Positions 1 through 12,733 of a DNA stretch of 64,000 bases are shown here, piece after piece. Source of the DNA: Natronospirales bacterium (lineage in GTDB: Bacteria; Pseudomonadota; Gammaproteobacteria; Natronospirales; REEB76); the NCBI GenBank assembly GCA_021792635.1, contig JAJYUH010000013.1, positions 2,862 to 66,861 on the forward strand, written 5' to 3'. The position numbers and the translations under genes were made by a program. Numbering within the stretch: position 1 is the stretch's first letter; each line of letters starts with the position of its first letter. A model generated the notes under the pieces. That model did no database searches. It worked only from the letters and a program-made list of their open reading frames with translations, and was not told where the DNA came from.

Positions 1-2455
1 CACCCGCCGCAAATGTGGTGGTACCCTGGAAATCGTTGGCCTGATTGCCCAGCAAGATGTCCTGATTGCCGGAAACGGTGGAGTTCTGGGTGAAAGTCGC
101 CGCCCCCGTGACAGTGAGCGCGCCGCTCTCGCTGAGGGTGCCGCTGGAGGTCACGCTCAGACTGCCGCCCACGGCGCTCGTCCCCAGCTGCGTGGCCACC
201 GTATTGGTCAGGCTCACGGCGTTGGCGCCGCTGTTATTGAGCGACACCGCACCGGTCAGCGTATTAGCGTTGCCCAGGCTGATCGGTCCCGCGCCGCCGT
301 TGAAGGTCGCGGCCCCGCCGCCCGCCGCCTGGGTGATGGTAGTCACGCCCGATTGGGTGATGCCCGCTCCGCTTACCGTGAGCGCGCCGGTACCCAGGGT
401 CACATTGCCCAGTTGCGTCGCGGTGGCGTTGCTCAGCGTTGTTGTACCGCCGACGCTGTTGCTGATAGTGATAGTTCCCGAGAGACTGGTGCCGGAGTTG
501 GTCAGCGAAATCGGTGCGCCAGCGGAAACCAGACTCACCGCGCCGCCGCCGGCTGATTGCACCAGAGACCCGATACCGCCACTGTCGTTGATGCCGTTGC
601 CCTGAAGCGTGACCGCTCCTGTGCCCGTATTGACTGCCGCACCCACTACCACTGCCCCGGCATTGGCACCGGTGGCCTGGGCGGTGAAATTGCCGTTGCC
701 CGTAGTGATCGGCGCGCTGACAGTGATACCACAAGCAGTGGAACCACAGCTCAAACCGCTGGCATTGGTAATCAATGATACATTCAGCCTACCGGCGGTA
801 GGAGCAATACCCGTCCCTGACTGAATATTGATGCTGCCGCTGGCCTGCAGCGTCAGGTTTGCCGTGCCGGTACCGCCGACCGTAAAGCCGGAGATCGGCG
901 TCATCACAGTAATATTGCCGTTACCACCGCAAGCGCCGCAGGTGGTGGTAACGGTGACATTGGTGCCGCCTGACAGTGCTGCGGTGATATCTCCCACATA
1001 CACGTTGCCGGGGTTGCCGCTCGAGGGGGTATAGGTGCCGGTAGTGAACGTGCCGCCGCTGGTCGGGCTTACACTGGTGATGTTCACGTCCTGTGGATCC
1101 AGCAGCCAGGTTCCCGATGGCCCCGCTGGCGCGGTAGCATTTACCGTACCGGCCACCTGCAAATTTCCGCGGCTTGAGGTTTCCACAAACCCGCCGTTGC
1201 CGCCCTGCATGCCCCCTTGTACATCGATATGTCCATAAAAACCGGTGTAATTCCTGGACCAGAGGATCACCTCACCACCGTTGCCACTGGTCGTTGCATT
1301 AGCGGTCAGCGAGGCATTCTGCCCAAGCACGGTGGCGGAAGCGGCTTGAACTCCTGGCGCTCCATGCTCGTCGCCGCCTACCAGAATCGTGCCACCGCCG
1401 TGGGTGCCGGAGGCATTCACGCTGGCTTGATCCAGCACCCCGACCTGATTGCCCAGAATCTGTATGCTGCCGCCGGTACCAGCAGTGGATGCGACGTTCA
1501 CCGAAGCGTTGCCGCGTAATTCCGTGGTGCCAGTGGACTGCAGCGTGATACTGCCGCCGTTGCCGCTGGCGCTGCTGGCGTTCAGAGTGCCGCTGTTGAT
1601 TACAGCGCCGCCGTTGCCGGTAAGATAAATGTGGCCACTGTTATCTTGAATACCGGTTGCCTGCACGATGCCGCTGTTATTCACGGCTTGCATCAGTACC
1701 TGTTCGGCCACTGCCGCGGTCATCACTACCGTGCCGCCATTCGCTTCAATCTTGCCCGCATTAGTAATCACCGCCCCAGTCCGGGCATTCACCATTTTAT
1801 GCAGCACAGAACCGGTAACCTGGAATTGCATGAGGCCATCACCGTTGAAATCCACCGTGACGGCGGAACCGGCTGCCAGGTTTACCTGGCCGAGATTGGC
1901 AATGATGATGCCGTCATTGAGAACGCTGCTGCCGATGAGATTAATGGAACCGCCATCGGCCGCCTGCAGCACGCCATGATTGATAATGTAACCACCATCC
2001 TGACCATCGGGTGCGGCAAACTTGAGATTGCCACTCATGAAATCACTGTTGCTGATATTGAGACCGGTGGCGAACAATCCGCCCACATTTACCATGGCGG
2101 TTTTGCCAAAGATGATGCCATTGGGATTGAGGAGGTAAACCTGACCGTTGGCAATTAGGTTGCCGAATATCTGGCTGGGGTTCTGGCCGAGTATGCGATT
2201 CAGTGCTGCGGCGGAAACGGATGGCTGATTGAACTGCACCGTTTCATCGGAGGCAATATTGAAACTTGTCCAATCAATCACCAGGCGATTCGACTGTTGA
2301 TTGATGAGGGTGGTGGTGGTGGTGGGATTGGAAATATCACCCTGACCCGCAACCACTTGTCCGCCTTGGGGGCCGGCCACTGCGGAATTGGCGGCCACGG
2401 CGAGACACGCCAGCAACAGACCGATGGCCCTGCGGTTCAGTCGGGGGCGAAGCAT
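1..2455 (-). CDS. Two-partner-secretion exoprotein (TpsA / filamentous-haemagglutinin-like), N-terminal ~818 codons; 3-prime end lies beyond the window edge
   Basis: Not in the supplied ORF track (no stop codon inside the window). My own minus-strand translation from ATG 2455 (in-frame alternative ATG 2497) reads MLRPRLNRRAIGLLLACLAVAANSAVAGPQGGQVVAGQGDISN... TPS secretion-domain motifs LGQNPSQIFGNL and YLLNPNGIIFG are present. These are followed by continuous Gly/Thr/Ser/Asn/Ala-rich beta-helix-type repeats (GGGTILVGGDEHG, GNGGFVETSSRGNL, WLLDPQDVNITS), with the frame open to nt 1. Lies directly downstream of the TpsB gene on the same strand. Confidence 0.85.
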   Translation of the reverse strand, partial: MLRPRLNRRAIGLLLACLAVAANSAVAGPQGGQVVAGQGDISNPTTTTTLINQQSNRLVIDWTSFNIASDETVQFNQPSVSAAALNRILGQNPSQIFGNLIANGQVYLLNPNGIIFGKTAMVNVGGLFATGLNISNSDFMSGNLKFAAPDGQDGGYIINHGVLQAADGGSINLIGSSVLNDGIIIANLGQVNLAAGSAVTVDFNGDGLMQFQVTGSVLHKMVNARTGAVITNAGKIEANGGTVVMTAAVAEQVLMQAVNNSGIVQATGIQDNSGHIYLTGNGGAVINSGTLNASSASGNGGSITLQSTGTTELRGNASVNVASTAGTGGSIQILGNQVGVLDQASVNASGTHGGGTILVGGDEHGAPGVQAASATVLGQNASLTANATTSGNGGEVILWSRNYTGFYGHIDVQGGMQGGNGGFVETSSRGNLQVAGTVNATAPAGPSGTWLLDPQDVNITSVSPTSGGTFTTGTYTPSSGNPGNVYVGDITAALSGGTNVTVTTTCGACGGNGNITVMTPISGFTVGGTGTANLTLQASGSINIQSGTGIAPTAGRLNVSLITNASGLSCGSTACGITVSAPITTGNGNFTAQATGANAGAVVVGAAVNTGTGAVTLQGNGINDSGGIGSLVQSAGGGAVSLVSAGAPISLTNSGTSLSGTITISNSVGGTTTLSNATATQLGNVTLGTGALTVSGAGITQSGVTTITQAAGGGAATFNGGAGPISLGNANTLTGAVSLNNSGANAVSLTNTVATQLGTSAVGGSLSVTSSGTLSESGALTVTGAATFTQNSTVSGNQDILLGNQANDFQGTTTFAAG

Positions 2456-2561
2456 TTGCTGTACCTGCCCCGTTGCGGGTTCTGCTGCTCGCTGCATGCT
2501 ATCCCCTGTCATTCCATGTATAGGCTGCCCGGGCCCGATATATCGTTAAATAAAGTGTAGC

Positions 2562-4598
2562 TCAAAAACTGAAGGTCGCGTCAGCCCATAGCTGCGAGGC
2601 GCTACGGATCGCCGTAGGGTCATAAATCGTCGCGCCCGGCCGCGCTCCACCGTTCAGGTGCGCCCATTGCAGGTTGGCCGTGAACCGGCCGGGCCAGGTG
2701 AATTCAATGCCGATGCCATTGCCCTCCACCGCGATACGCTTGGTATTGGGATTCACGGGGTTATTCAAAATACCGACGGCGGCATCGCTGAAAATACTGA
2801 AGCGCAACACTTGCCCCCAAGTAAATCCCCCGAAGGCGGCTTTGTCCGCAAAACCCGGAGCCCGGACGCTGTACGACAATGAGCCGAATACTCCCTTGTC
2901 AGTCAGGAATTGCGAGGTGGGTACGGCACGCACACTGTCAGGTCCGCCGATCACAAATTGCTCCAGCGATGTCAGCATGTCAGGTGAATACTGGCCATCC
3001 AGGCGGAATAGCATTGATTGGTTATAGGGCAGGCTCTTGAACAGTTGATAATTGACTGTCAGGCGCGTAAAGCTCGGCAGCGCCGGCTGGCCATTTCCTC
3101 CAAACCGACTGGGCGGCGGAGAGACCTGCTTGTTCTCAATCGCCGAATCACTCGGCACACCCAGCACGCCCGGAAGTCCGCGTTCCAGACGGATGGAGCT
3201 GGTAGTAATGATTCCCAGATATGGATTGATGGAATCATAATTCAATTGAAATCCCAGTACCGCAAGATTGTCACGTCCGATGACATTGCCAAGAAATTGG
3301 GTATCAGCCTGCTTGCGGCTCAAATCAATCGTACCGATGATGTTTTGCTCACGTGAGCGTAAAAATGCACGCTGCAGCGATAATGTTGCTATTTTAGATA
3401 TGCCGCCGATAGTACCTGGGGTTATTCCGGAGCCAGTGACATTGAATGAGTTCCGGCTTACATCCACAGCTATTGTATTTTCAGGATTGTAGAATGGATG
3501 CTCGTAACGGATATCGCCGAAAATGGAATTTTCAGGCGAAAATGTCTTCAGTGCCGTAACTCTGAGAAGATCCGCATCGCCGGTTGGGTTGTTCCAGTCA
3601 AAGGTACCGATGAGACGACGCCGTCCGGTAAATGCCGTTCCTTCATTATCCGCACGCACGCTTGCGTCATAAGGGCGCTCCTGCTGCACGTTGATAACCA
3701 TATCAGTAGTACCAACATAATCACCGGGTCGGAATACCCCGAATGCACTCAACCCCGGATATTGCGCCAGAGTAAGCAATGCATTCTCGCTCTGCTTCAC
3801 TGTTACCAAGTCGCCGATCATGGATTTAAATGGCCTTGCTAACAGCGCGCTTGAATAACGCTTGTTACCGACGGTTACGATCTTATGCAGACGACCCTCA
3901 AGCACGCGGATATGCACAATGCCATCAGTGACTTCCTGCGCCGGAATTACCGCGCGCGCGAGGAAATAGCCGCGCCGGTGGTAATACTCTGTTATCACAT
4001 TTGCAATCTGTTGCAGTTCACCAACCGTCAATCCACGAAACTGAGCCAGATGTTTAAGCTGTAGCTGCCGAATAAACTGCTGATACGCTTTTTTCTGCAC
4101 TTCAGGTGATTCTGTTTTGATCCTGCCCTGCATGAACCGGGCTATTTGCTCGCGCTCTTTCGATGTAAGTTCCCGGGGCGCCCGGGTCGGGCGATGTTCC
4201 ACCCGCTGAAGTTGCTTTTCAACCAGCGCTTCGATTTGCGAGAAACGCCTATCCACTGCCTTCTGTACTTGCTCCGGGATAATGCCGCTGCTGCGATCTC
4301 CGATTACCCCGGTGATGATGAATTTCCTGACAAATATTCTTGCGCCCTCGCTGCTTTTCAGCGGCCGTTCTGCGACAGGAGGAATATTAATTTGCAGATT
4401 GGTTTCCGGAAGCGGCAGGATCGGCGGTGGCACGATAGGTTGTGCGCCGCCGGGCTGCGCACCACCCGGTAGCGGTGGTGGTGGCGGCTGCAATACCGCA
4501 GGAGGAGCGGCCAATGCCATACTTGGCAGCAATATGCCAAGCAGTATCCTTGACAGCCAGTTACGGAATGCAGAAATACGAAATGGGCTCGCCGTCAT
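2562..4598 (-). CDS. ShlB/FhaC/HecB-family outer-membrane transporter (TpsB) of two-partner secretion
   Basis: ORF 2562..4835. Likely start is ATG 4598 (MTASPFRISAFRNWLSRILLGILLPSMALAAP signal peptide; GAAGG about 7 nt upstream). Pro-rich linker, POTRA-like segment (RGYFLARAVIPAQEVTDGIVHIRVLEGRLHKI), and a C-terminal beta-barrel ending in aromatic ...WADATFSF. Confidence 0.85.
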   Translation of the reverse strand: MTASPFRISAFRNWLSRILLGILLPSMALAAPPAVLQPPPPPLPGGAQPGGAQPIVPPPILPLPETNLQINIPPVAERPLKSSEGARIFVRKFIITGVIGDRSSGIIPEQVQKAVDRRFSQIEALVEKQLQRVEHRPTRAPRELTSKEREQIARFMQGRIKTESPEVQKKAYQQFIRQLQLKHLAQFRGLTVGELQQIANVITEYYHRRGYFLARAVIPAQEVTDGIVHIRVLEGRLHKIVTVGNKRYSSALLARPFKSMIGDLVTVKQSENALLTLAQYPGLSAFGVFRPGDYVGTTDMVINVQQERPYDASVRADNEGTAFTGRRRLIGTFDWNNPTGDADLLRVTALKTFSPENSIFGDIRYEHPFYNPENTIAVDVSRNSFNVTGSGITPGTIGGISKIATLSLQRAFLRSREQNIIGTIDLSRKQADTQFLGNVIGRDNLAVLGFQLNYDSINPYLGIITTSSIRLERGLPGVLGVPSDSAIENKQVSPPPSRFGGNGQPALPSFTRLTVNYQLFKSLPYNQSMLFRLDGQYSPDMLTSLEQFVIGGPDSVRAVPTSQFLTDKGVFGSLSYSVRAPGFADKAAFGGFTWGQVLRFSIFSDAAVGILNNPVNPNTKRIAVEGNGIGIEFTWPGRFTANLQWAHLNGGARPGATIYDPTAIRSASQLWADATFSF

Positions 4599-4955
4599 CA
4601 GGGGCCTTCTGGAGTTGTTCCCGAAATCACCGCGCGCCGGTAACGCCTTAGGAGGTACGGGCTGCCACCGCATCGAGTCCAGCCGCGGCTGGTGTGGTGT
4701 AAACGACGTGGGGGACGGGGCTAAGATAGCGTGACTACCCACGGGTTGGCAACAATTATGTAAGATAGGTCCAAGGCCAGCCTGTATGGTGCACATATAT
4801 AAGTGAGGCGATCGGGGCGATAGCCCGCGATACATGAGCCTGTTCGCCGCGGGCTACAAGCAGAGTTTACGGTTATGTAACATGTGCCGCCGAGGTGCGG
4901 TACCCGGACACCCTCCCTGCACACCCATGGCACGCATAATTCAAGGTATCACGGC

Positions 4956-5684
4956 ATGAAAGAATCCACGCCCGCATTGCACTGGAACTCCTTCGGTATC
5001 ACCAACGTCGGTGCAGTGCGCAAGGCCAACGAGGATGCCTTCCTAAACCGCCCAGATCTGGGAGTCTGGGCGGTGGCGGACGGCATGGGCGGTCATGCTG
5101 CCGGTGATGTCGCAAGCCAGATTGTAGTAGACCGGCTTGCGCAGCTGCCCGCAAACAGCAGTCTCAGCGCGCTGATTGATGCAGCCGAGGATCGCCTGTT
5201 GGAAGCAAACCGCAAACTTCTGACTTTGGCAATGCGTCAGAAGGAACGCACCATCGGCAGCACGGTGCTAGCTCTGGTTGCACGCGGCCGTCACGCGGCT
5301 TGTCTGTGGGCGGGTGACAGCCGTTTGTATCGTATCCGTGGCCGACGCATCGAACAAATGATGCAGGATCATGCCATGGTGGAAGACCTGGTGGCGAGCG
5401 GTCTCATCACACGCGAAGAGGCGGCAGATCACCCCCAGGCAAACCGTATTACCCGTGCAATCGGTGCCATGCCAAGTTTATTCATGGATATTGAGCTCTT
5501 TGCAGTACGGCCAGGCGATATCTACCTGCTTTGCAGTGACGGGCTTTACAAGGAACTCAGCAACGACGAAATCGTAAAAACACTCAACAATAACGAACAA
5601 GCTGTTGACAAACTGATCATGTTTGCCCTGGAACGCGGTGCGCGAGACAACGTCACGGTAGTAACCGTACGCTTCACATCATAG
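4956..5684 (+). CDS. PP2C-family (PPM) serine/threonine protein phosphatase
   Basis: ORF 4884..5684; start moved to ATG 4956 (MKESTPALHWNSFGITNVG). PPM motifs RKANEDAF, ADGMGGHAAGDVAS, DSRLYR, LLCSDGL, RGARDNVTVV. Confidence 0.85.
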   Translation: MKESTPALHWNSFGITNVGAVRKANEDAFLNRPDLGVWAVADGMGGHAAGDVASQIVVDRLAQLPANSSLSALIDAAEDRLLEANRKLLTLAMRQKERTIGSTVLALVARGRHAACLWAGDSRLYRIRGRRIEQMMQDHAMVEDLVASGLITREEAADHPQANRITRAIGAMPSLFMDIELFAVRPGDIYLLCSDGLYKELSNDEIVKTLNNNEQAVDKLIMFALERGARDNVTVVTVRFTS

Positions 5685-5720
5685 ATGTTTATTTCTTGAA
5701 ATAAATCCGGGAGGCCATAC

Positions 5721-8700
5721 GTGACTGATTTCGAGAAATTACTTGATGATGTTGTGCAAGGAAAAATTTCGCTTGCCCCGCTACGGGATTGGTTAGAACA
5801 AGCCTTGCGGCAACCGGGATGTGATCTCGGTGCATTAAGCGCTTCCATAGAAAATGCGCAGCGAGCCGGACTCTCGCAGCCCGTAGCCATGGTATTGCGC
5901 AAACAAATTGAAACATTACAGAACCCGTCAAATATGGCGCCGCATGATAAAGAGCAGGATCAGATCACCGCGACCATAACCACCACAAGAACCGAAACGC
6001 AGCCGGATAACATGGAGCGTACCAGTACCGCCGAATTGCCGGCTGAATCTACGCACACTGATACGGATCGCACGGTGACGGCTCCCGGCACAAGTACAAC
6101 ATCCCCTTCTGATGAAACCTCTGCTGCGTCCGGAACGGATACTGAGCGGACAGTAATGCTCAATACGACCGGAAACAGTACAAATGATCGGACTGTAACC
6201 GGGATATCAGAAAGCTCGTTGCGAAATGCAGATGAATACGATCCATTTTCCCCTGATGTCACTTTGTCCTCCGGATCCGGTGAGTTAACCAGCACAGACT
6301 GGAATGCGGGTGCCGAGAAAAAAACCACTCATGTGGCTGATAAAGTTGGTCCTGGCACAATTCTGAAAGAACGCTTTGAACTGGTAAGTGTTCTTGGGGA
6401 AGGCGGCATGGGCAAGGTTTACCGGGCACGGGATCTGCTCAAGGTGGAAGCCAAGGACAAAAACCCGTTCATTGCCGTGAAGACGCTCTCTGGAGACTTC
6501 AGGCAGCACCCGGAAGCATTCATGGCCCTGCAGCGCGAGGCTAGCAAGGCACAACGGCTTGCACACCCGAATATCGCCACCGTATTTGACTTTGATCGCG
6601 ACAGCACCACTATTTATCTCACCATGGAACTGATGGAGGGAGAAGAACTGTCTTCCTTCATAAAACGGCTGCCTGCCGGCGGTTTGCCGGTCCCAGAGGC
6701 CATGAATTTCATCAAGCAATTATGCGATGGGCTCGGTTATGCTCACTCGAAAGGCCTGGTGCATTCTGATTTCAAGCCTGGCAATGTATTCATCACCAAA
6801 GAAGGTACAGTCAAGCTTCTGGATTTCGGTATTGCACGTGCTTCTACTACCCGCAAGGATGTGTCAGGAGAAACCACGATTTTTGATCCCAGCGAGCTCG
6901 GTGCGCTCACCCCAGCCTATGCATCGCTTGAGATGTTTGATGGCGATGATCCTGATCCGCGCGATGATATCTATGCACTCGCCTGCGTCTCATATGAGCT
7001 GCTTACCGGCAAGCATCCGTTCAATAAGCTCTCCGCTCCAAAAGTACTGGAAAAGGGTTTGCGTCCAGCACCTATTGCCAAGCTTAGCAAACGGCAGAAC
7101 AGGGCTTTGATGAACGCACTTGCGATACACCGGGAGGATCGGACTCCCACTGTAGAAAGATTCTGGGAAGGGCTCAGGTCGAAAAAAAGCCCCGTCATAC
7201 AGTACGGCCCCATCGCCGTAGCCGTCATAATCATACTGCTACTGCTGGGCTACAAGCCGATTCAAGGCTACCTGCATGCGCGGCGTAATAACGAGCTTGT
7301 GGCCCGCATTCAATCCGGTAACACAGATATTCCTTCCGTCCTCAAGCTTATCAGTGGCTACAGCCCGGACTCACAACGCTACATTCTTGAAAATGGCAAA
7401 GAAAAGATCATCAAATATTTTGAGGCTCAGGCAGAAGCGTTCGTGGATGAAAGCCATGGCCAGTACAATTATCCCGCCGCACTCGACGAGATAGCCAGGG
7501 CATCACGATACTTTTCTGATTCCGCCGAGTTATTACAGGAGCAATCTAGCCTGCAAAATCGCAGGGCAACCCTGCTTGCAAAATTGACAAAAGAATTCAA
7601 TTCGCTGCTTGCTGCGAATGAAATCCTGCCGGGTAAGGGACAGAATATCGTCAAGATCATCAAGATACTTCGTATAGCGGATCCCGCCAACAGTCTTTTG
7701 CACGATGAGCGCCTCTCAAATCAGTATGCGCAACTGGTGCAAAAAGATATGGACAATGAAGACTATACTGCCGCCAACCAAGCTCTGGTGGTAGGACGAG
7801 ATTACGCGCCAAATGACCCGGTGCTGCTCAATCTGCAGGATCAGGTGCGGCATGCGCTGACGCAGCAGCGGGATAGCTTACGCATCGCTCAACTCGATAA
7901 CGTGCTGCAAGCAGCTGCACCAAAACTGCGCTCTCTGGCTGATTTTTCCCGCCTAAAAGACGATATGCTGGAACTGACACGGCTTAATCCTGACGATCCG
8001 GTGCTTGAGAAGCTTGATCTTGTCCTCAAGAACACGCTGCAAGCTGCTTTGCATACGGATACCGCCACCAAGAACTGGAGGAATGCCGAAAAGATTCTAT
8101 TTGAATATTCTCATCTTCTCAGCATTGAGGAAATACTTGCGGACCGAATGGTGCTGTCACAGTCAGAAACCAGAAATAACTATGTCCCTGCGGACATGCA
8201 GGTGCGTCTGCGGGAGATTCATCAGCACCGCTTGGGTATCACAAGGCTGCTCGCCGCACCGGATTACAGCAGCGGCTGGGACAGCAAAATAATGCAACTA
8301 ATGCAGGAAACCGCATCTCTGCTGTTACCCAATGATTTTGACTGGTATAAGCGCATGCGTGAAAAGGTAACTGGAACTTACCTGAACCTCGCACAGCAGA
8401 TGATCAAGCAGAATCGTTTTGATGCTGCCACCACCTTGCTTGCCACAGGCAGAAGATATACCCCGCAGTTTCCGGGTTTCGTGCAAGCCAGTGAGGCCTT
8501 GGCGACCGCGCAGCAGAATTTCGCACAGATACAGGCCCGGCGTCTGCGCATGGCGCAAATCACTGCCCTCGAAAACCAGTTTCAGACGCAACTGAATGCC
8601 GGCCAGGTCAATGACGCGAAACAGACCTATGCAAAATTGCAGCACCGGCTGTCAGCCGATGATAAGTTTCTCACTACTGATGCACCGCGAGCCTATGCCA

Positions 8701-10055
8701 TGGCTTACCTCAACCTGGCCAACGCGCGTGCCAGTAGCGGAGATTATCGTGGCGCGATCACCCTGGTAAACGGCGGACTGCACTACGCTCCCCTTGCCGG
8801 CCTGGAAAAGGCACTGCGTAACTACACAGCCCAGGCTGAACGCAATGACCTATTCGCCATGGTGAATGCACTGCAGCCGGCCGACGTGATTTCTCTGAAA
8901 AGAAAACTTACGGATGTGCAACGGCTGTTTCCCGGGGAACAGATACAGATTGCCGATAATCTCTTCAGAAAATTGGCGCAACACATTAATACGCTGAAAA
9001 CTGTCAATCTTGGACTAGCCGACCAATTACTGAGCGCGTCAAAAGCCGCGTTTTTGCAAAGCGCCCTCATCCAGAATATGAACCTGCCGCCTGCACCGCA
9101 GCTGTCACGCTATGCGCAGCTTGGACGCGAAGCCATGGCTAAAAATGACCTCTCGAAAGCTGAAGGCTACTTCGAACAAGGTCAACAGGCGCAGCCGCGC
9201 AATCAGGATCTTGTGCAGTTTGGCACACAACTACAGGCAGCCCAATCCAGTGCCAATCGCTATTTTCTTGCTTATCAGGAATACATGCGCGCGGGTCAGC
9301 CACGGCAAGCGAAGGTGTACCTTGACGAAGCTATCCGCTTATGGGCAGACAATCCGGTTTTTGTGGCTGAATACCAACGTAATTTTGGTTCCAGCCAGGA
9401 ACCTGTACGCAGCCCTAATGGTGGTCAGCCCTGCACGGCAGAGCTGGCCGGGTACGGTCGGCAAGGCCGTGCCGAATGCTACGACCTCTTGGGCAATGGC
9501 CTGCAGGGACCCGCAATGGTGGTGGTACCTGCTGGTGGCGGCTTCAAACAGCCTTTTGCCATCGGCAAGTACGCCGTATCCGTGGGACAGATCAATGCCT
9601 TCTGTGCTGCCACAAAAAAATGCGGGCTGTTGCCTGGTGACGGTAATTTGCCTGCGACAAATATCCCCTTTGGCGAAGTGAAGTCCTATATTGCATGGCT
9701 TTCCGCCAGAAGCGATGAGCATTATTTCATTCCCTCTTATGCTCAGTACCGTTATGCAGCCAGCGTGGGCGGCACCGATACCAATCGTGATTTCAATTGC
9801 CAGGTGACCCTGGCTGGCCAGGTTATCAAGGGATTAACTCCAGTGAATATTGAAACCGGCCAAGCCAACGGCTGGGGACTGGTCAATTATGTGGGAAACG
9901 TGCAGGAATGGGTTCTGGGGTCAGATGGTCTTGAGGCGGTGGGCGGCAGTTACCGGGATCCATTGTCGCTGTGCAGCGTAGATCTGGTGCGCCCCAGTAA
10001 TGGTGCTGCGGATCCGCTCACGGGTTTCCGTGTTGGCCGGAACCTGGATAAATAA
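5721..10055 (+). CDS. Hanks-type Ser/Thr protein kinase, membrane-spanning, with long helical-repeat region and C-terminal FGE-sulfatase (SUMF1)-like domain
   Basis: GTG 5721 with GGGAGG 6 nt upstream. Kinase motifs GEGGMGKVY, IAVKTL, HSDFKPGNVF, DFGIAR (about nt 6360-7140). Single TM VIQYGPIAVAVIIILLLLGY (about nt 7195-7260), then ~700 aa of helical/TPR-like sequence. C-terminal FGE-sulfatase-like signature PAMVVVPAGGGFKQPFAIGKYAVSVGQINAF ... NGWGLVNYVGNVQEWV ... GGSYRDP ... GFRVGR (about nt 9500-10040). Confidence 0.85.
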   Translation: MTDFEKLLDDVVQGKISLAPLRDWLEQALRQPGCDLGALSASIENAQRAGLSQPVAMVLRKQIETLQNPSNMAPHDKEQDQITATITTTRTETQPDNMERTSTAELPAESTHTDTDRTVTAPGTSTTSPSDETSAASGTDTERTVMLNTTGNSTNDRTVTGISESSLRNADEYDPFSPDVTLSSGSGELTSTDWNAGAEKKTTHVADKVGPGTILKERFELVSVLGEGGMGKVYRARDLLKVEAKDKNPFIAVKTLSGDFRQHPEAFMALQREASKAQRLAHPNIATVFDFDRDSTTIYLTMELMEGEELSSFIKRLPAGGLPVPEAMNFIKQLCDGLGYAHSKGLVHSDFKPGNVFITKEGTVKLLDFGIARASTTRKDVSGETTIFDPSELGALTPAYASLEMFDGDDPDPRDDIYALACVSYELLTGKHPFNKLSAPKVLEKGLRPAPIAKLSKRQNRALMNALAIHREDRTPTVERFWEGLRSKKSPVIQYGPIAVAVIIILLLLGYKPIQGYLHARRNNELVARIQSGNTDIPSVLKLISGYSPDSQRYILENGKEKIIKYFEAQAEAFVDESHGQYNYPAALDEIARASRYFSDSAELLQEQSSLQNRRATLLAKLTKEFNSLLAANEILPGKGQNIVKIIKILRIADPANSLLHDERLSNQYAQLVQKDMDNEDYTAANQALVVGRDYAPNDPVLLNLQDQVRHALTQQRDSLRIAQLDNVLQAAAPKLRSLADFSRLKDDMLELTRLNPDDPVLEKLDLVLKNTLQAALHTDTATKNWRNAEKILFEYSHLLSIEEILADRMVLSQSETRNNYVPADMQVRLREIHQHRLGITRLLAAPDYSSGWDSKIMQLMQETASLLLPNDFDWYKRMREKVTGTYLNLAQQMIKQNRFDAATTLLATGRRYTPQFPGFVQASEALATAQQNFAQIQARRLRMAQITALENQFQTQLNAGQVNDAKQTYAKLQHRLSADDKFLTTDAPRAYAMAYLNLANARASSGDYRGAITLVNGGLHYAPLAGLEKALRNYTAQAERNDLFAMVNALQPADVISLKRKLTDVQRLFPGEQIQIADNLFRKLAQHINTLKTVNLGLADQLLSASKAAFLQSALIQNMNLPPAPQLSRYAQLGREAMAKNDLSKAEGYFEQGQQAQPRNQDLVQFGTQLQAAQSSANRYFLAYQEYMRAGQPRQAKVYLDEAIRLWADNPVFVAEYQRNFGSSQEPVRSPNGGQPCTAELAGYGRQGRAECYDLLGNGLQGPAMVVVPAGGGFKQPFAIGKYAVSVGQINAFCAATKKCGLLPGDGNLPATNIPFGEVKSYIAWLSARSDEHYFIPSYAQYRYAASVGGTDTNRDFNCQVTLAGQVIKGLTPVNIETGQANGWGLVNYVGNVQEWVLGSDGLEAVGGSYRDPLSLCSVDLVRPSNGAADPLTGFRVGRNLDK

Positions 10056-10610
10056 ATGAAATCTTCGCTCATCCGCGATCTCGCCCGGCGTTATGCAGCC
10101 GGCGAGCTGAGCCTCGATGAGTATCGCACGCAACGCCGGGACTTGGTTGATGCCATCACCACCGGTAACCACCGGCTTGAATACGGCGAACCTGCGCTGA
10201 AGCCCATCCTGCGGATACGGCTTCTGTGGCTAATCACCGTCCTGCTGGTGTTGGCCGTTACAGCCGGCTTTGTTACTTCTCGATGGCTTGGAAATTCCCA
10301 TAAGCCGCAACAGCGGGTGCATGCCCCCTCTGTGACCGGGCCAATGCTGGTACGCGCGTTCCTCGAGGCAAATGACTGGAGTGACACCAGCCTGGATCAT
10401 TTCATGCGCCGCTGGAAAGCATTACCTGTCAGCGAGCAGCAGGCGGCGCGTCACAGCTATCTGTTCCCCCGCTTGGCAGCGCAACTGCAAGAGCAGATTA
10501 TTTCCCAGGAAGCCATGGTAAGTCTGACTCCGAAAACCGGCAAAGCCACAGCTCACCTTGCCCGTCTGCAACGGGTGGCAATCAAACTTGGAGTGAGCCT
10601 GGGAAATTGA
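10056..10610 (+). CDS. Small single-pass membrane protein, uncharacterised, translationally coupled to the kinase
   Basis: ATG 10056 directly abuts the kinase stop (TAAATG). N-terminal helix ELSLDEYRTQRRDLVDAI, one TM (LLWLITVLLVLAVTAGFV), and a ~100-aa C-terminal domain with no family I can name. Confidence 0.6.
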   Translation: MKSSLIRDLARRYAAGELSLDEYRTQRRDLVDAITTGNHRLEYGEPALKPILRIRLLWLITVLLVLAVTAGFVTSRWLGNSHKPQQRVHAPSVTGPMLVRAFLEANDWSDTSLDHFMRRWKALPVSEQQAARHSYLFPRLAAQLQEQIISQEAMVSLTPKTGKATAHLARLQRVAIKLGVSLGN

Positions 10611-10642
10611 TCTCGACAGGTCGCCCGCCAGCGAGTCCGTGC

Positions 10643-11485
10643 TCAAGTTTGAGCCATGATATAGGCAATCCAGGCCGGGTCGGCCTTACCCCGTGCCGTA
10701 GGCTGGAATACACCGTTGCCTTCGCCGGTTTTCGCATCAGTACCTTCAAAATACACCGTGATTTTTTCAAAACCCGCTTCGGCCAGCAGTTCGCGAAGCT
10801 CCGGAAGGGTCCAGAGCCGCCAGTGGTAGCTGAAAGCCTGCCTGAGGCGCGAACCGTCAGGAAAGGAGAAATGGATATGGCAGGTGGTTTGACCGGACAC
10901 CGGTTCGTATGCCGCCTGCTCCCATACATAAGTGAAGCGGCCGAAATCTTCCCGCTCGCGCATTTCCCGGAAAGCGTCATAGCCCCCATAGGCATCCAAC
11001 ATAAAAATCCCGTCGGCTGAGAGGCCCTGACGCACTTGGCGAAAATACTCCCGTAGCAACGCGCGTTCCTTGAAAATCCAATAACTGAAATTAAATGCTA
11101 AAATGATATCCACCGTCGGAACTTGTACCGTGAGCACATCCGCCTGTAATAGCCGGAGGCGGCGGGCAATACGCGGGGCAAGCCTCGACACATTGTGCTG
11201 CCGGCCCCAGGCAAGCACTGCGGGATCAATGTCCACGCCGATAGCCTGATGGCGGCGGTTACGCTTCACCCACTCGCAAGCGGCCAGCGCCGTACCGCAA
11301 AAATCCTCCCGCAGCTGCTGAGGAGCACGCTTGCGCAAAGCCCGAAAGGTCTGCTCTACAAAGTGCATTTCCCAAGCCACATCCTGTACTGACCTTTGGT
11401 ACAAGGCATAGCGATCAGCACGTTCGGCAAGTGTGAGCGACCTGCTGCTGTGGCTCGACTGGGTAGTTTCGCGTGTAGGATTCAT
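10643..11485 (-). CDS. Class I SAM-dependent methyltransferase
   Basis: ORF 10643..11623; probable start ATG 11485 (MNPTRETTQ...). SAM-binding region LREDFCGTALAACEWVKRNRRHQAIGVDIDP, followed by a typical Rossmann-like MTase fold sequence. Confidence 0.75.
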   Translation of the reverse strand: MNPTRETTQSSHSSRSLTLAERADRYALYQRSVQDVAWEMHFVEQTFRALRKRAPQQLREDFCGTALAACEWVKRNRRHQAIGVDIDPAVLAWGRQHNVSRLAPRIARRLRLLQADVLTVQVPTVDIILAFNFSYWIFKERALLREYFRQVRQGLSADGIFMLDAYGGYDAFREMREREDFGRFTYVWEQAAYEPVSGQTTCHIHFSFPDGSRLRQAFSYHWRLWTLPELRELLAEAGFEKITVYFEGTDAKTGEGNGVFQPTARGKADPAWIAYIMAQT

Positions 11486-11734
11486 TCGATAAGATTCCTG
11501 GGAAAGATTGTTCGCGGGCCATGCTGCAAGGGCCGGCATTGTAGCCAAGATAATCAGGAAATTGAGAGTAATTTGTGTCGGGTTACTGAATATGCGGTCC
11601 GCCACGGCCGGATCTGTGATCACCGAAAAAAACCATAACCCTGAATATGTTGAAAATTACCCCCAGGATCGCGATTTTTTAACCGGAAATTGTGCATTTA
11701 CCTTCAAGCCGTCATTCGGCACGCTGCCACATGA

Positions 11735-12733
11735 TCAGGCTGCGGCGGGTAACAGCCGCATGGCGTCTTGTAACACTTCAATGCCTGTCCTCGGACGTAC
11801 CGTCCCCTCGCTCAGATGGCGTCGCCACTTGCGTGCGCCGCGACATCCCTGAAAAAGACCCAGGAGGGGACGGATCAAACGTTGCAAGGGCACATCTTCC
11901 TGCAGCTGCACCAACATGTACGGAATAAAGGTTTCCAGTACCTGGGCACGTGTAGACACGGGCTCCTCGATGCCAAAGAAATGCCGGTCCACGGTGGCGA
12001 ACAGGTACGGATTGGCGCAGGCTTCCCGGCCAATCATCACCCCATCAAATGCCGACAAATGAGAACCCATGGCCTGCAGCGTCCGGATGCCGCCGTTCAC
12101 CACAATGCCGAGATGCGGGAAATCGCGTTTGAGCTGCTCTGCGATTTCGTAGCGTAACGGCGGTATTTCGCGGTTTTCCTTCGGACTGAGCCCCTTCAGT
12201 AAGGCCTTGCGCGCATGGATGACGAATACCTGGCAACCGGCCTGGGCAACCGTATATACAAATGTCTTCAAGTGTTCGTAACTGTCATTGTCATCCACAC
12301 CGATGCGTGTTTTCACCGTGACCGGTACAACTGACGCCGCCCGCATGGCAGCCACGCAGTCAGCCACCAATGCCGGTTCAGTCATGAGACAGGCACCGAA
12401 ACGACCCGATTGCACACGATCACTGGGACAACCCGCATTGAGATTGATTTCATCATAGCCATAGTCCGCGGCAATACGCGCGCACTCAGCGAGTGCCGTG
12501 GGTTCGCAGCCTCCCAATTGCAAAGCAAGCGGGTGCTCTACCTGGTGAAAACCGAGGAAACGCCGCTGTTCACCGCGTAATATGGCACCCGTGGTCACCA
12601 TCTCGGTATACAGGCGGGTGTATCGGCTCATGAGCCGGATAAAATAACGGAAATGCCGATCCGTGTAGTCCATCATGGGTGCTACACATATCCGGTGCGT
12701 GGATCCGCAAGAAATCGCCTTACTGTCACTCAT
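11735..12733 (-). CDS. dusA: tRNA-dihydrouridine(20/20a) synthase DusA
   Basis: N-terminus ...HRICVAPMMDYTDRHFRYFIRLMSRYTRLYTEMVTTGAI matches the DusA signature. Full-length FMN TIM-barrel protein of 332 aa. Confidence 0.9.
   Translation of the reverse strand: MSDSKAISCGSTHRICVAPMMDYTDRHFRYFIRLMSRYTRLYTEMVTTGAILRGEQRRFLGFHQVEHPLALQLGGCEPTALAECARIAADYGYDEINLNAGCPSDRVQSGRFGACLMTEPALVADCVAAMRAASVVPVTVKTRIGVDDNDSYEHLKTFVYTVAQAGCQVFVIHARKALLKGLSPKENREIPPLRYEIAEQLKRDFPHLGIVVNGGIRTLQAMGSHLSAFDGVMIGREACANPYLFATVDRHFFGIEEPVSTRAQVLETFIPYMLVQLQEDVPLQRLIRPLLGLFQGCRGARKWRRHLSEGTVRPRTGIEVLQDAMRLLPAAA

Follow-up and report, generated by a model that had tools for sequence, protein, structure and literature searches.

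A Hanks-type kinase and PP2C phosphatase operon conserved beside the two-partner secretion genes of a giant exoprotein in a Natronospirales bacterium and its relatives

Two divergent operons were analysed at the start of a 64,000-nucleotide stretch of DNA from a Natronospirales bacterium (the window; G000:C6:2862-66861), the genome of which comprises 2.71 Mb in 30 contigs and is 94% complete. One operon holds tpsB and the 5' part of tpsA, the genes of a two-partner secretion (TPS) system, and the other encodes a PP2C-type phosphatase, a very large Hanks-type kinase and a small membrane protein with a SHOCT-like segment. Searches of Pfam and NCBIfam bear out the five genes that an initial annotation of the window had placed here, and the 357-bp divergent region that it had described between the two operons is also supported, as TpsB starts at the Met at 4598, where its signal peptide begins (MTASPFRISAFRNWLSRILLGILLPSMALAAPP), and the homology of the PP2C protein begins at the ATG at 4956. 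These genes, together with a gene for an FHA-domain protein of 305 aa (FHA305) that lies beyond the window, most likely form one signalling unit. The closest relative of the kinase, with 87% identity, is encoded in a metagenome-assembled genome labelled Natronospirales.

The tpsA fragment encodes a signal peptide, a TPS domain (PF05860, 1e-33 over residues 47-311; NCBIfam TIGR01901, 3e-24) and then Gly/Thr/Ser/Asn-rich beta-helix repeats (DUF5649), and the NPNG motif of TpsA is seen as LNPNGIIFG. TpsB is laid out as a signal peptide, a Pro-rich linker, an N-terminal periplasmic region of ~187 aa, a POTRA domain (PF08479 POTRA_2, 2.7e-12) and a ShlB barrel (PF03865, 4.1e-23), and 49 bp separate the end of its gene from the start of tpsA on the same strand. 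As both defining features of type Vb (two-partner) secretion are present, TpsB and TpsA are a bona fide pair of this type. Residues 1-187 of TpsB (window 4038-4598), in which a Pro-rich stretch and a charged helical insertion of ~100 aa precede the POTRA domain, are specific to this family, as paralogous TpsBs from related genomes become alignable only at residue ~188. They are a candidate site of contact with the kinase ectodomain.

The tpsA gene of the initial annotation is present in the window, but only as a fragment, which continues to the start of contig C6 and then on contig C12. The reading frame stays open for another 2861 bases to the contig start, so that 1791 aa without a stop are encoded on C6, and the end of C12 carries the C-terminal part of a protein, 1316 aa long and open at its 5' end, with GGTGNDxF-type repeats as in tpsA. 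No terminal sequence overlap was found between C12 and C6. The two pieces were joined because the genome has a single TPS domain, the repeats match, residues 558-1315 of the C12 piece are 39% identical to the C-terminus (5263-6010) of a contiguous relative TpsA of 6011 aa, and the flanking synteny is identical in a 481-kb contig. The last is a long-read contig of a relative with a 67% identical kinase, and it holds the complete, unbroken locus in the order kinase, PP2C, tpsB, tpsA (5336 aa), FHA (301 aa), PEPCK, transglycosylase, with the tps side divergent from PP2C; both flanks match those of C6 and C12. In a second relative (G001/G011) the kinase contig also carries a tpsA gene for 6011 aa and, after it, an FHA gene, and four more contigs show a giant open reading frame (ORF), then an FHA gene, then PEPCK. 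The full TpsA would be a giant protein of the cell surface with roughly 5,000 aa.

The gene for FHA305 starts 4 bp after the tpsA stop on C12 and is followed by a convergent PEPCK gene and a transglycosylase gene. The order tpsA-FHA-PEPCK was found in all seven examples from clades A and B of the kinase tree (defined below by gene order), in two of which tpsB-tpsA-FHA is also contiguous with the kinase; the tps operon ends in the gene of a cytoplasmic phosphothreonine reader, FHA305. The initial annotation had seen no FHA-domain protein here and had concluded that a different relay would be needed. This does not hold for the locus, as the apparent absence is an assembly artefact caused by the contig break inside tpsA, which leaves FHA305 outside the window, and an FHA reader is encoded in the tps operon, with a second one, fused to a cyclase, in the cluster of most other lineages.

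FHA305 carries its FHA domain at the C-terminus (PF00498, 1.7e-9). The AlphaFold2 model (pLDDT 81.8) has a hairpin and helical bundle at the N-terminus (16-151), which a disordered linker connects to the FHA fold at the C-terminus, and the FHA part matches the FHA domains of mycobacterial GarA, Rv0020c and EmbR (Foldseek, PDB), with the GR...SxxH residues conserved. The Foldseek matches in the PDB are confined to the FHA part, and the EmbR hit has a TM of 0.18. The 64 clusters of the FHA305 family all derive from uncultured Gammaproteobacteria, and no functional name is attached to any of them.

The kinase begins with a conserved N-terminal helical domain (residues 1-65), followed by an acidic linker (~66-215) with ~21% Thr and three (D/E)RTV motifs, the kinase domain (~216-480) and a transmembrane segment (~508-528). 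The linkers of orthologues down to 38% identity again contain (D/E)(R/K)T(V/I/L) motifs, and we suggest that the linker (D/E)RTV motifs are candidate phosphothreonine docking sites. Residues K254, D350, K352, N355 and D368-F-G are invariant among 17 aligned orthologues. The catalytic loop reads HSDFKPGN (residues 347-354, window 6759-6782), having HSD instead of HRD, and this non-RD form is invariant across orthologues; activation-loop phosphorylation may be unnecessary in such a kinase. Judged by its sequence, the protein is a bitopic receptor, the kinase domain of which is cytoplasmic, of the non-RD type and catalytically complete.

The periplasmic part of the kinase consists of a TPR superhelix (~540-1222) and then a PvdO/FGE-like head (~1235-1444). 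The AlphaFold2 model of the 905-aa ectodomain (pLDDT 85.6) shows ~34 helices (model residues 1-683) and then an alpha/beta head, and in Foldseek searches the helices match the TPR superhelix scaffolds Ctr9, Ski3 and OGT-TPR. The best relative of the head is PvdO (Foldseek 5hha, TMt 0.53; phmmer 1.9e-6) and not an FGE, the match to FGE-sulfatase PF03781 being partial (2.4e-7, profile positions 35-189 of 255). Six Cys are invariant in the head in the 17-orthologue alignment, which fits periplasmic disulfides.

In the third protein of the kinase operon, a SHOCT-like helix on the cytoplasmic side is joined through a transmembrane segment to a domain of ~105 aa in the periplasm. The stop codon TAA of the kinase gene abuts the ATG of the SHOCT gene (TAAATG), and the two are translationally coupled. 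The PP2C gene lies immediately upstream of the kinase in nearly all orthologous loci, and the SHOCT gene lies directly downstream of it throughout clades A and B and has recognisable relatives in more distant loci. The genes for PP2C, kinase and SHOCT membrane protein are one operon.

Table 1. Features of the divergent locus in window coordinates, and the truncated kinase gene of genome G066 in coordinates of its own locus
Feature	Coordinates	Strand	Basis or remark
tpsA, 5' part, 837 aa in window	2..2512	minus	Pfam TPS + DUF5649
tpsB, 678 aa	2562..4598 (ORF 2562..4835)	minus	Pfam POTRA_2 + ShlB
Divergent intergenic region, 357 bp	4599..4955		between tpsB start and PP2C start
Direct repeat TAAGATAG	4722-4729 and 4761-4768		repeat scan; within conserved block
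Sigma-70-like promoter candidate for tpsB (TTGCCA, 18 nt, TATCTT)	4723..4752	minus	consensus scan
Motif TTATGTAA[G/C]AT, two copies	4756-4766 and 4873-4883		core ATGT-A-ACAT is an inverted repeat
9-nt inverted repeat	4821-4829 / 4848-4856		repeat scan
PP2C-type Ser/Thr phosphatase, 242 aa	4956..5684	plus	Pfam PP2C + PP2C_2; NF033484 (Stp1/IreP family) 1.5e-61
Bitopic Hanks-type kinase, 1444 aa	5721..10055	plus	Pkinase PF00069 1.7e-38 + TPR + FGE-sulfatase
Single-pass membrane protein, 184 aa	10056..10610	plus	Pfam SHOCT 4.2e-5, below curated cut-off
G066 truncated kinase	L104 (G066:C26:92000-111999), 10142-11917	minus	

The conservation of this arrangement was determined in 80 orthologous kinase loci (one genome per species, flanks up to 10 kb) using tblastn with the window proteins. 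TpsB and/or the TpsA N-terminus was detected beside the kinase in 49 of the 80 loci, and five further loci have an adjacent giant exoprotein gene, with a TPS domain at the gene start confirmed for Saccharospirillum and Marinospirillum. As 21 loci were too short to judge, 59 were informative, and in 54 of these tpsBA or a giant exoprotein gene is adjacent to the kinase; the gene-neighbourhood survey that the initial annotation had proposed is clearly positive. Only one or a few TpsB genes occur per genome of this size. The linkage persists in at least five gene orders and down to ~31% kinase identity, through inversions and transpositions of the TPS genes. The adjacency of TPS genes and kinase is far above chance, and coincidence, which was one of the two explanations offered initially, is effectively excluded. 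A functional coupling of the two operons is very likely.

Six gene orders were distinguished. In the window (order A) FHA305, tpsA and tpsB are divergent from PP2C, kinase and SHOCT, and order B is like A with a convergent cyclase-FHA gene added after the SHOCT gene. Order C has tpsA, tpsB and a parvulin gene divergent from cyclase-FHA, PP2C and kinase. Kinase, tpsB and tpsA are co-directional in order D (Steroidobacteraceae including Povalibacter), as are tpsA, a small gene, cyclase-FHA, PP2C and kinase in order E (Saccharospirillum and Marinospirillum), and order F is one locus with a convergent giant gene. In a FastTree phylogeny of the kinase each gene order is clade-specific, and A is nested in B with 100% support; the linkage spans the deepest split of this tree and was lost at least three times. 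The small gene of order E is conserved and encodes 205-211 aa with a signal- or transmembrane-like N-terminus (L041 7039-7674; L044 3963-4580).

The neighbourhood could also be conserved without a functional link, if the two operons were simply co-inherited as part of a stable stretch of the chromosome. The flanks are indeed syntenic as well within the window's order, with BipA, PdxH, Dus and a methyltransferase on one side and PEPCK and a transglycosylase on the other, and the genomes compared are related and non-independent. These flanking genes are however not conserved outside clades A and B, whereas the TPS-kinase linkage is kept in far more distant loci despite their rearrangements. Furthermore, FHA305 still co-varies with the kinase where the two are unlinked, and in a lineage that lost the TPS genes a separate second deletion took the ectodomain and the SHOCT gene (both set out below). 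We therefore regard mere co-inheritance as very unlikely.

Co-presence was examined in the 66 genomes of the window's order, 32 of which are of high quality; as related genomes are non-independent samples, the counts are supportive and carry no formal test. The kinase ectodomain is present in 28 of the 32 high-quality genomes, and wherever the assembly permits, a high-identity TpsB orthologue is found on the kinase contig, a few kb away. In families f3 (0/6) and f9 (0/4) the kinase, the TpsB orthologue and FHA305 were all not found. Across the 66 genomes, kinase and FHA305 occur together in 35, the kinase alone in five, FHA305 alone in eight and neither in 18. A second order, represented by 81 genomes around G004, has FHA305 and the kinase 0.1-1 Mb apart; here both were found in 54 genomes, the kinase only in one, FHA305 only in seven (two pseudogenes and one fragment among them) and neither in 19, so that FHA305 is present in 54 of 55 kinase-positive genomes versus 7 of 26 kinase-negative ones. 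Whether FHA305 follows TPS adjacency instead of the kinase was also considered; the results were mixed and no claim is made.

In two genomes of this second order, G127 and G144, where no kinase ectodomain was found, the FHA305 orthologue has in-frame stop codons, which is consistent with decay after partner loss.

Loss was also seen closer to the window. In four congeners (two of them 94% and 97% complete) the kinase ORF has only ~590-695 aa, and TpsB and FHA305 are absent. The stump is an intact-looking ORF with the N-terminal domain, the kinase domain, the transmembrane segment and ~170 periplasmic residues; it lies directly beside PEPCK, and may be either a decaying remnant or a repurposed kinase. 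At the locus of G066 (97% complete) the order is methyltransferase, truncated kinase and directly PEPCK, and PP2C-tpsB-tpsA-FHA305 is gone. A second, separate deletion in G066, on the other side, removed the kinase residues beyond ~712 and the SHOCT gene. This deletion is independent of the first and links both the ectodomain and the SHOCT protein with the secretion genes.

CdiA toxins are among the TpsA proteins, and the cluster might be read as a contact-dependent inhibition or toxin delivery system, or as an anti-phage or conflict system, with the kinase as its immunity or sensing part. On the side of this reading, the word 'formylglycine' occurs in the text of a 2026 Nature paper, and of its preprint, on pattern-recognition receptors with which bacteria sense phage proteins. 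The 1316-aa C-terminal piece of TpsA has however no Pfam toxin domain and is not followed by a small immunity-like gene; in place of the polymorphic toxin tip and small immunity gene of a CdiBAI system, the next genes are FHA305 and PEPCK. The locus is moreover chromosomal and vertically inherited, occurs in 28 of the 32 high-quality genomes of the order, and is not a variable island. Such a role is most improbable.

In most lineages a 300-aa Guanylate_cyc+FHA (adenylate/guanylate cyclase-FHA) fusion belongs to the cluster, and in clade C a periplasmic parvulin gene precedes tpsB. A cyclase-FHA orthologue was found neither at the window locus nor elsewhere in its 94% complete genome. Four congeners that are 94-99% complete gave no match either, whereas G047, the positive control, was recovered at 1.7e-191. 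At the window locus the cluster has no parvulin gene, the search having covered the locus only. On the kinase tree the absence of the cyclase-FHA gene is a single loss. The window holds a derived, cyclase-less form of the cluster, and FHA305 is its only cluster-encoded phosphothreonine reader.

Further signalling genes were recorded elsewhere in this genome. A separate module of a Hanks kinase (887-aa ORF), a PP2C (275 aa) and an FHA protein (240 aa) lies at G000:C20:112908-116099 (L085). The third FHA protein of the genome, at G000:C28:60944-64147 (L086), has 464 aa, with a vWA-like N-terminus, a transmembrane segment and a C-terminal FHA domain.

An alignment of the divergent intergenic region with those of five close relatives revealed a conserved block at 4720-4768. 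Both hexamers of the tpsB promoter candidate sit in invariant columns inside this block; the scan of the region returned two sigma-70-like sites versus 0.5 expected, and these are matches to the consensus only. The two copies of TTATGTAA[G/C]AT are 117 nt apart, and the motif, a candidate operator, is present in 14 of the 17 intergenic regions of clades A and B. A CRP-like site (TGTGA-N6-TCACA, two mismatches or fewer) was found neither in the window's intergenic region nor in 15 of its 16 clade A and B relatives. Of the parvulin-cyclase intergenic regions of distant loci only 5 of 32 have a site, at positions that are not conserved, and control of the divergent promoter by CRP and cyclic AMP (cAMP) was set aside.

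The two divergent operons are probably one unit, a threonine-phosphorylation switch dedicated to the two-partner secretion of a giant surface protein. This corresponds to the second explanation of the initial annotation; the control of secretion by the kinase, and with it the function and the direction of signalling, is inferred. In such a switch the ectodomain would sense a cue in the periplasm or at the outer membrane that is linked with the secretion system, most likely the TpsA chain while it is extended during transit, or else the periplasmic extension that is specific to this TpsB family. The kinase would then autophosphorylate the (D/E)RTV threonines of its juxtamembrane linker, FHA305 would dock on these phosphothreonines and adjust the production or export of TpsA, and the PP2C would reset the switch. 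In most other lineages the FHA-cyclase, as a second reader, would turn the same signal into a cyclic nucleotide, a branch that would have been lost in this genus.

A more specific form of this switch can be proposed tentatively, and is rather less likely than not to be correct in its details. The periplasmic TPR superhelix may thread or clasp the unfolded TpsA chain or the TpsB extension during export and so act as a secretion checkpoint, at which traffic or a backlog of the cargo would lead to phosphorylation of linker threonines, and FHA305, which would share a transcript with the cargo, would throttle or license further TpsA synthesis or Sec targeting. If true, it would give type V secretion its first control circuit run by a Hanks kinase and would define a new family of FHA effectors.

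Several observations weigh against a switch dedicated to secretion. It is cytoplasmic and has no obvious handle on an outer-membrane transporter save TpsA synthesis or Sec targeting, and the N-terminal domain of its reader FHA305 matches no PDB fold (Foldseek and profile search) and no Pfam family (E up to 10). Saccharospirillum carries the cluster without FHA305, and in five loci with full flanks the kinase has no TPS system next to it. The genome encodes four other Hanks kinases and two other FHA proteins, and cross-talk with these is possible. Lastly, PP2C-tpsB-tpsA-FHA305 is contiguous, so that its joint absence from G066 could be one deletion and is weak evidence alone, and the non-independence of related genomes applies to all of the counts.

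The main rival to a secretion-directed switch reverses the roles. Here the TPS system would be the input, with surface TpsA or TpsB acting as an antenna for contact or surface cues, the ectodomain reading its state, and the output (a cyclic nucleotide in most lineages, FHA305 here) steering general physiology such as motility or biofilm formation and not TPS as such. As this explanation also predicts linkage, linkage cannot separate it from a switch dedicated to TPS. The ancestral reader is the cyclase-FHA, and a diffusible second messenger suits global control; FHA305 is unlinked to the kinase cluster in most distant genomes; the ectodomain was lost along with the TPS genes; and the examined divergent intergenic regions, in which CRP-like sites are lacking, give no sign of cAMP feedback on tps transcription. 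FHA305 is however the last gene of the tps operon in this clade, which fits a TPS-directed role, and no target outside the cluster was identified. We consider an antenna with its output elsewhere possible, though somewhat unlikely.

TPS is regarded as the simplest secretion route of Gram-negative bacteria, and the controls known for it are transcriptional. The regulators of TPS listed in a 2017 review (PMC5422565) are Fur, two-component systems, cyclic di-GMP/FleQ, RsmA and cell-surface signalling, and a Hanks kinase, PP2C or FHA module is not among them. A kinome preprint (10.1101/2025.01.12.632604) reports the FGE-sulfatase architecture in the Proteo1 kinase family, with no secretion context. 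In the literature searched we found no description of a Hanks kinase/PP2C/FHA module with TPS, in agreement with the initial annotation, which knew of no TPS equivalent, although this is not proof of absence. A conserved kinase/phosphatase/FHA module on TPS would extend phosphothreonine control of secretion beyond type VI, and would place a large family of FGE-domain kinases, together with a new FHA-protein family, in a biological context. The cluster has cultured, non-pathogenic carriers in Marinospirillum (M. alkaliphilum DSM 21637, M. perlucidum F3212), Saccharospirillum (sp. MSK14-1, HFRX-1) and Povalibacter (P. uvarum DSM 26723). The window adds a natural variant that lacks the cyclase branch and retains the stand-alone FHA305 within the tps operon, as well as relatives in which the secretion genes and the ectodomain were lost together.

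The secretion genes resemble FhaC/FHA of Bordetella and ShlB/ShlA of Serratia in the N-terminal TPS domain of TpsA and in the POTRA domain and Omp85 barrel of TpsB; unlike in these classical systems, TpsB has the additional N-terminal periplasmic region of ~187 aa. The parvulin gene before tpsB in distant clusters recalls the Bordetella parvulin Par27, which has been reported to bind FHA; the 2017 review of TPS does not mention Par27. The C-terminal 210 aa of the kinase have the fold of PvdO (5hha) and FGE/SUMF1 and are periplasmic, as is PvdO, but here the fold is fused to a kinase by a long TPR stalk and no enzymatic role is implied.

The closest analogue of the cluster, judging by its components, is the threonine phosphorylation pathway of the H1 type VI secretion system (T6SS) of Pseudomonas aeruginosa, with the kinase PpkA, the PP2C phosphatase PppA and Fha1; the cluster would resemble this pathway without being a member of it. 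The likeness to the PpkA/PppA pair, to which the initial annotation had pointed, is apt, as in both cases a bitopic Hanks kinase with a periplasmic sensor, a PP2C and an FHA reader are encoded in or beside secretion genes. The secretion system here is however type Vb (TpsB/TpsA) and not a T6SS, and no match to the T6SS sheath protein TssC/VipB (PF05943) was found in the 94% complete genome, while the control genome matched. The ectodomain of the kinase, unlike that of PpkA, is a TPR superhelix of ~680 aa with a PvdO/FGE-like head and not a vWA domain, and FHA305 differs from Fha1 in having an N-terminal domain without known relative and its FHA domain at the C-terminus. Beyond the components of the T6SS pathway, the cluster includes the SHOCT membrane protein here, the cyclase-FHA in most lineages and the parvulin in clade C.

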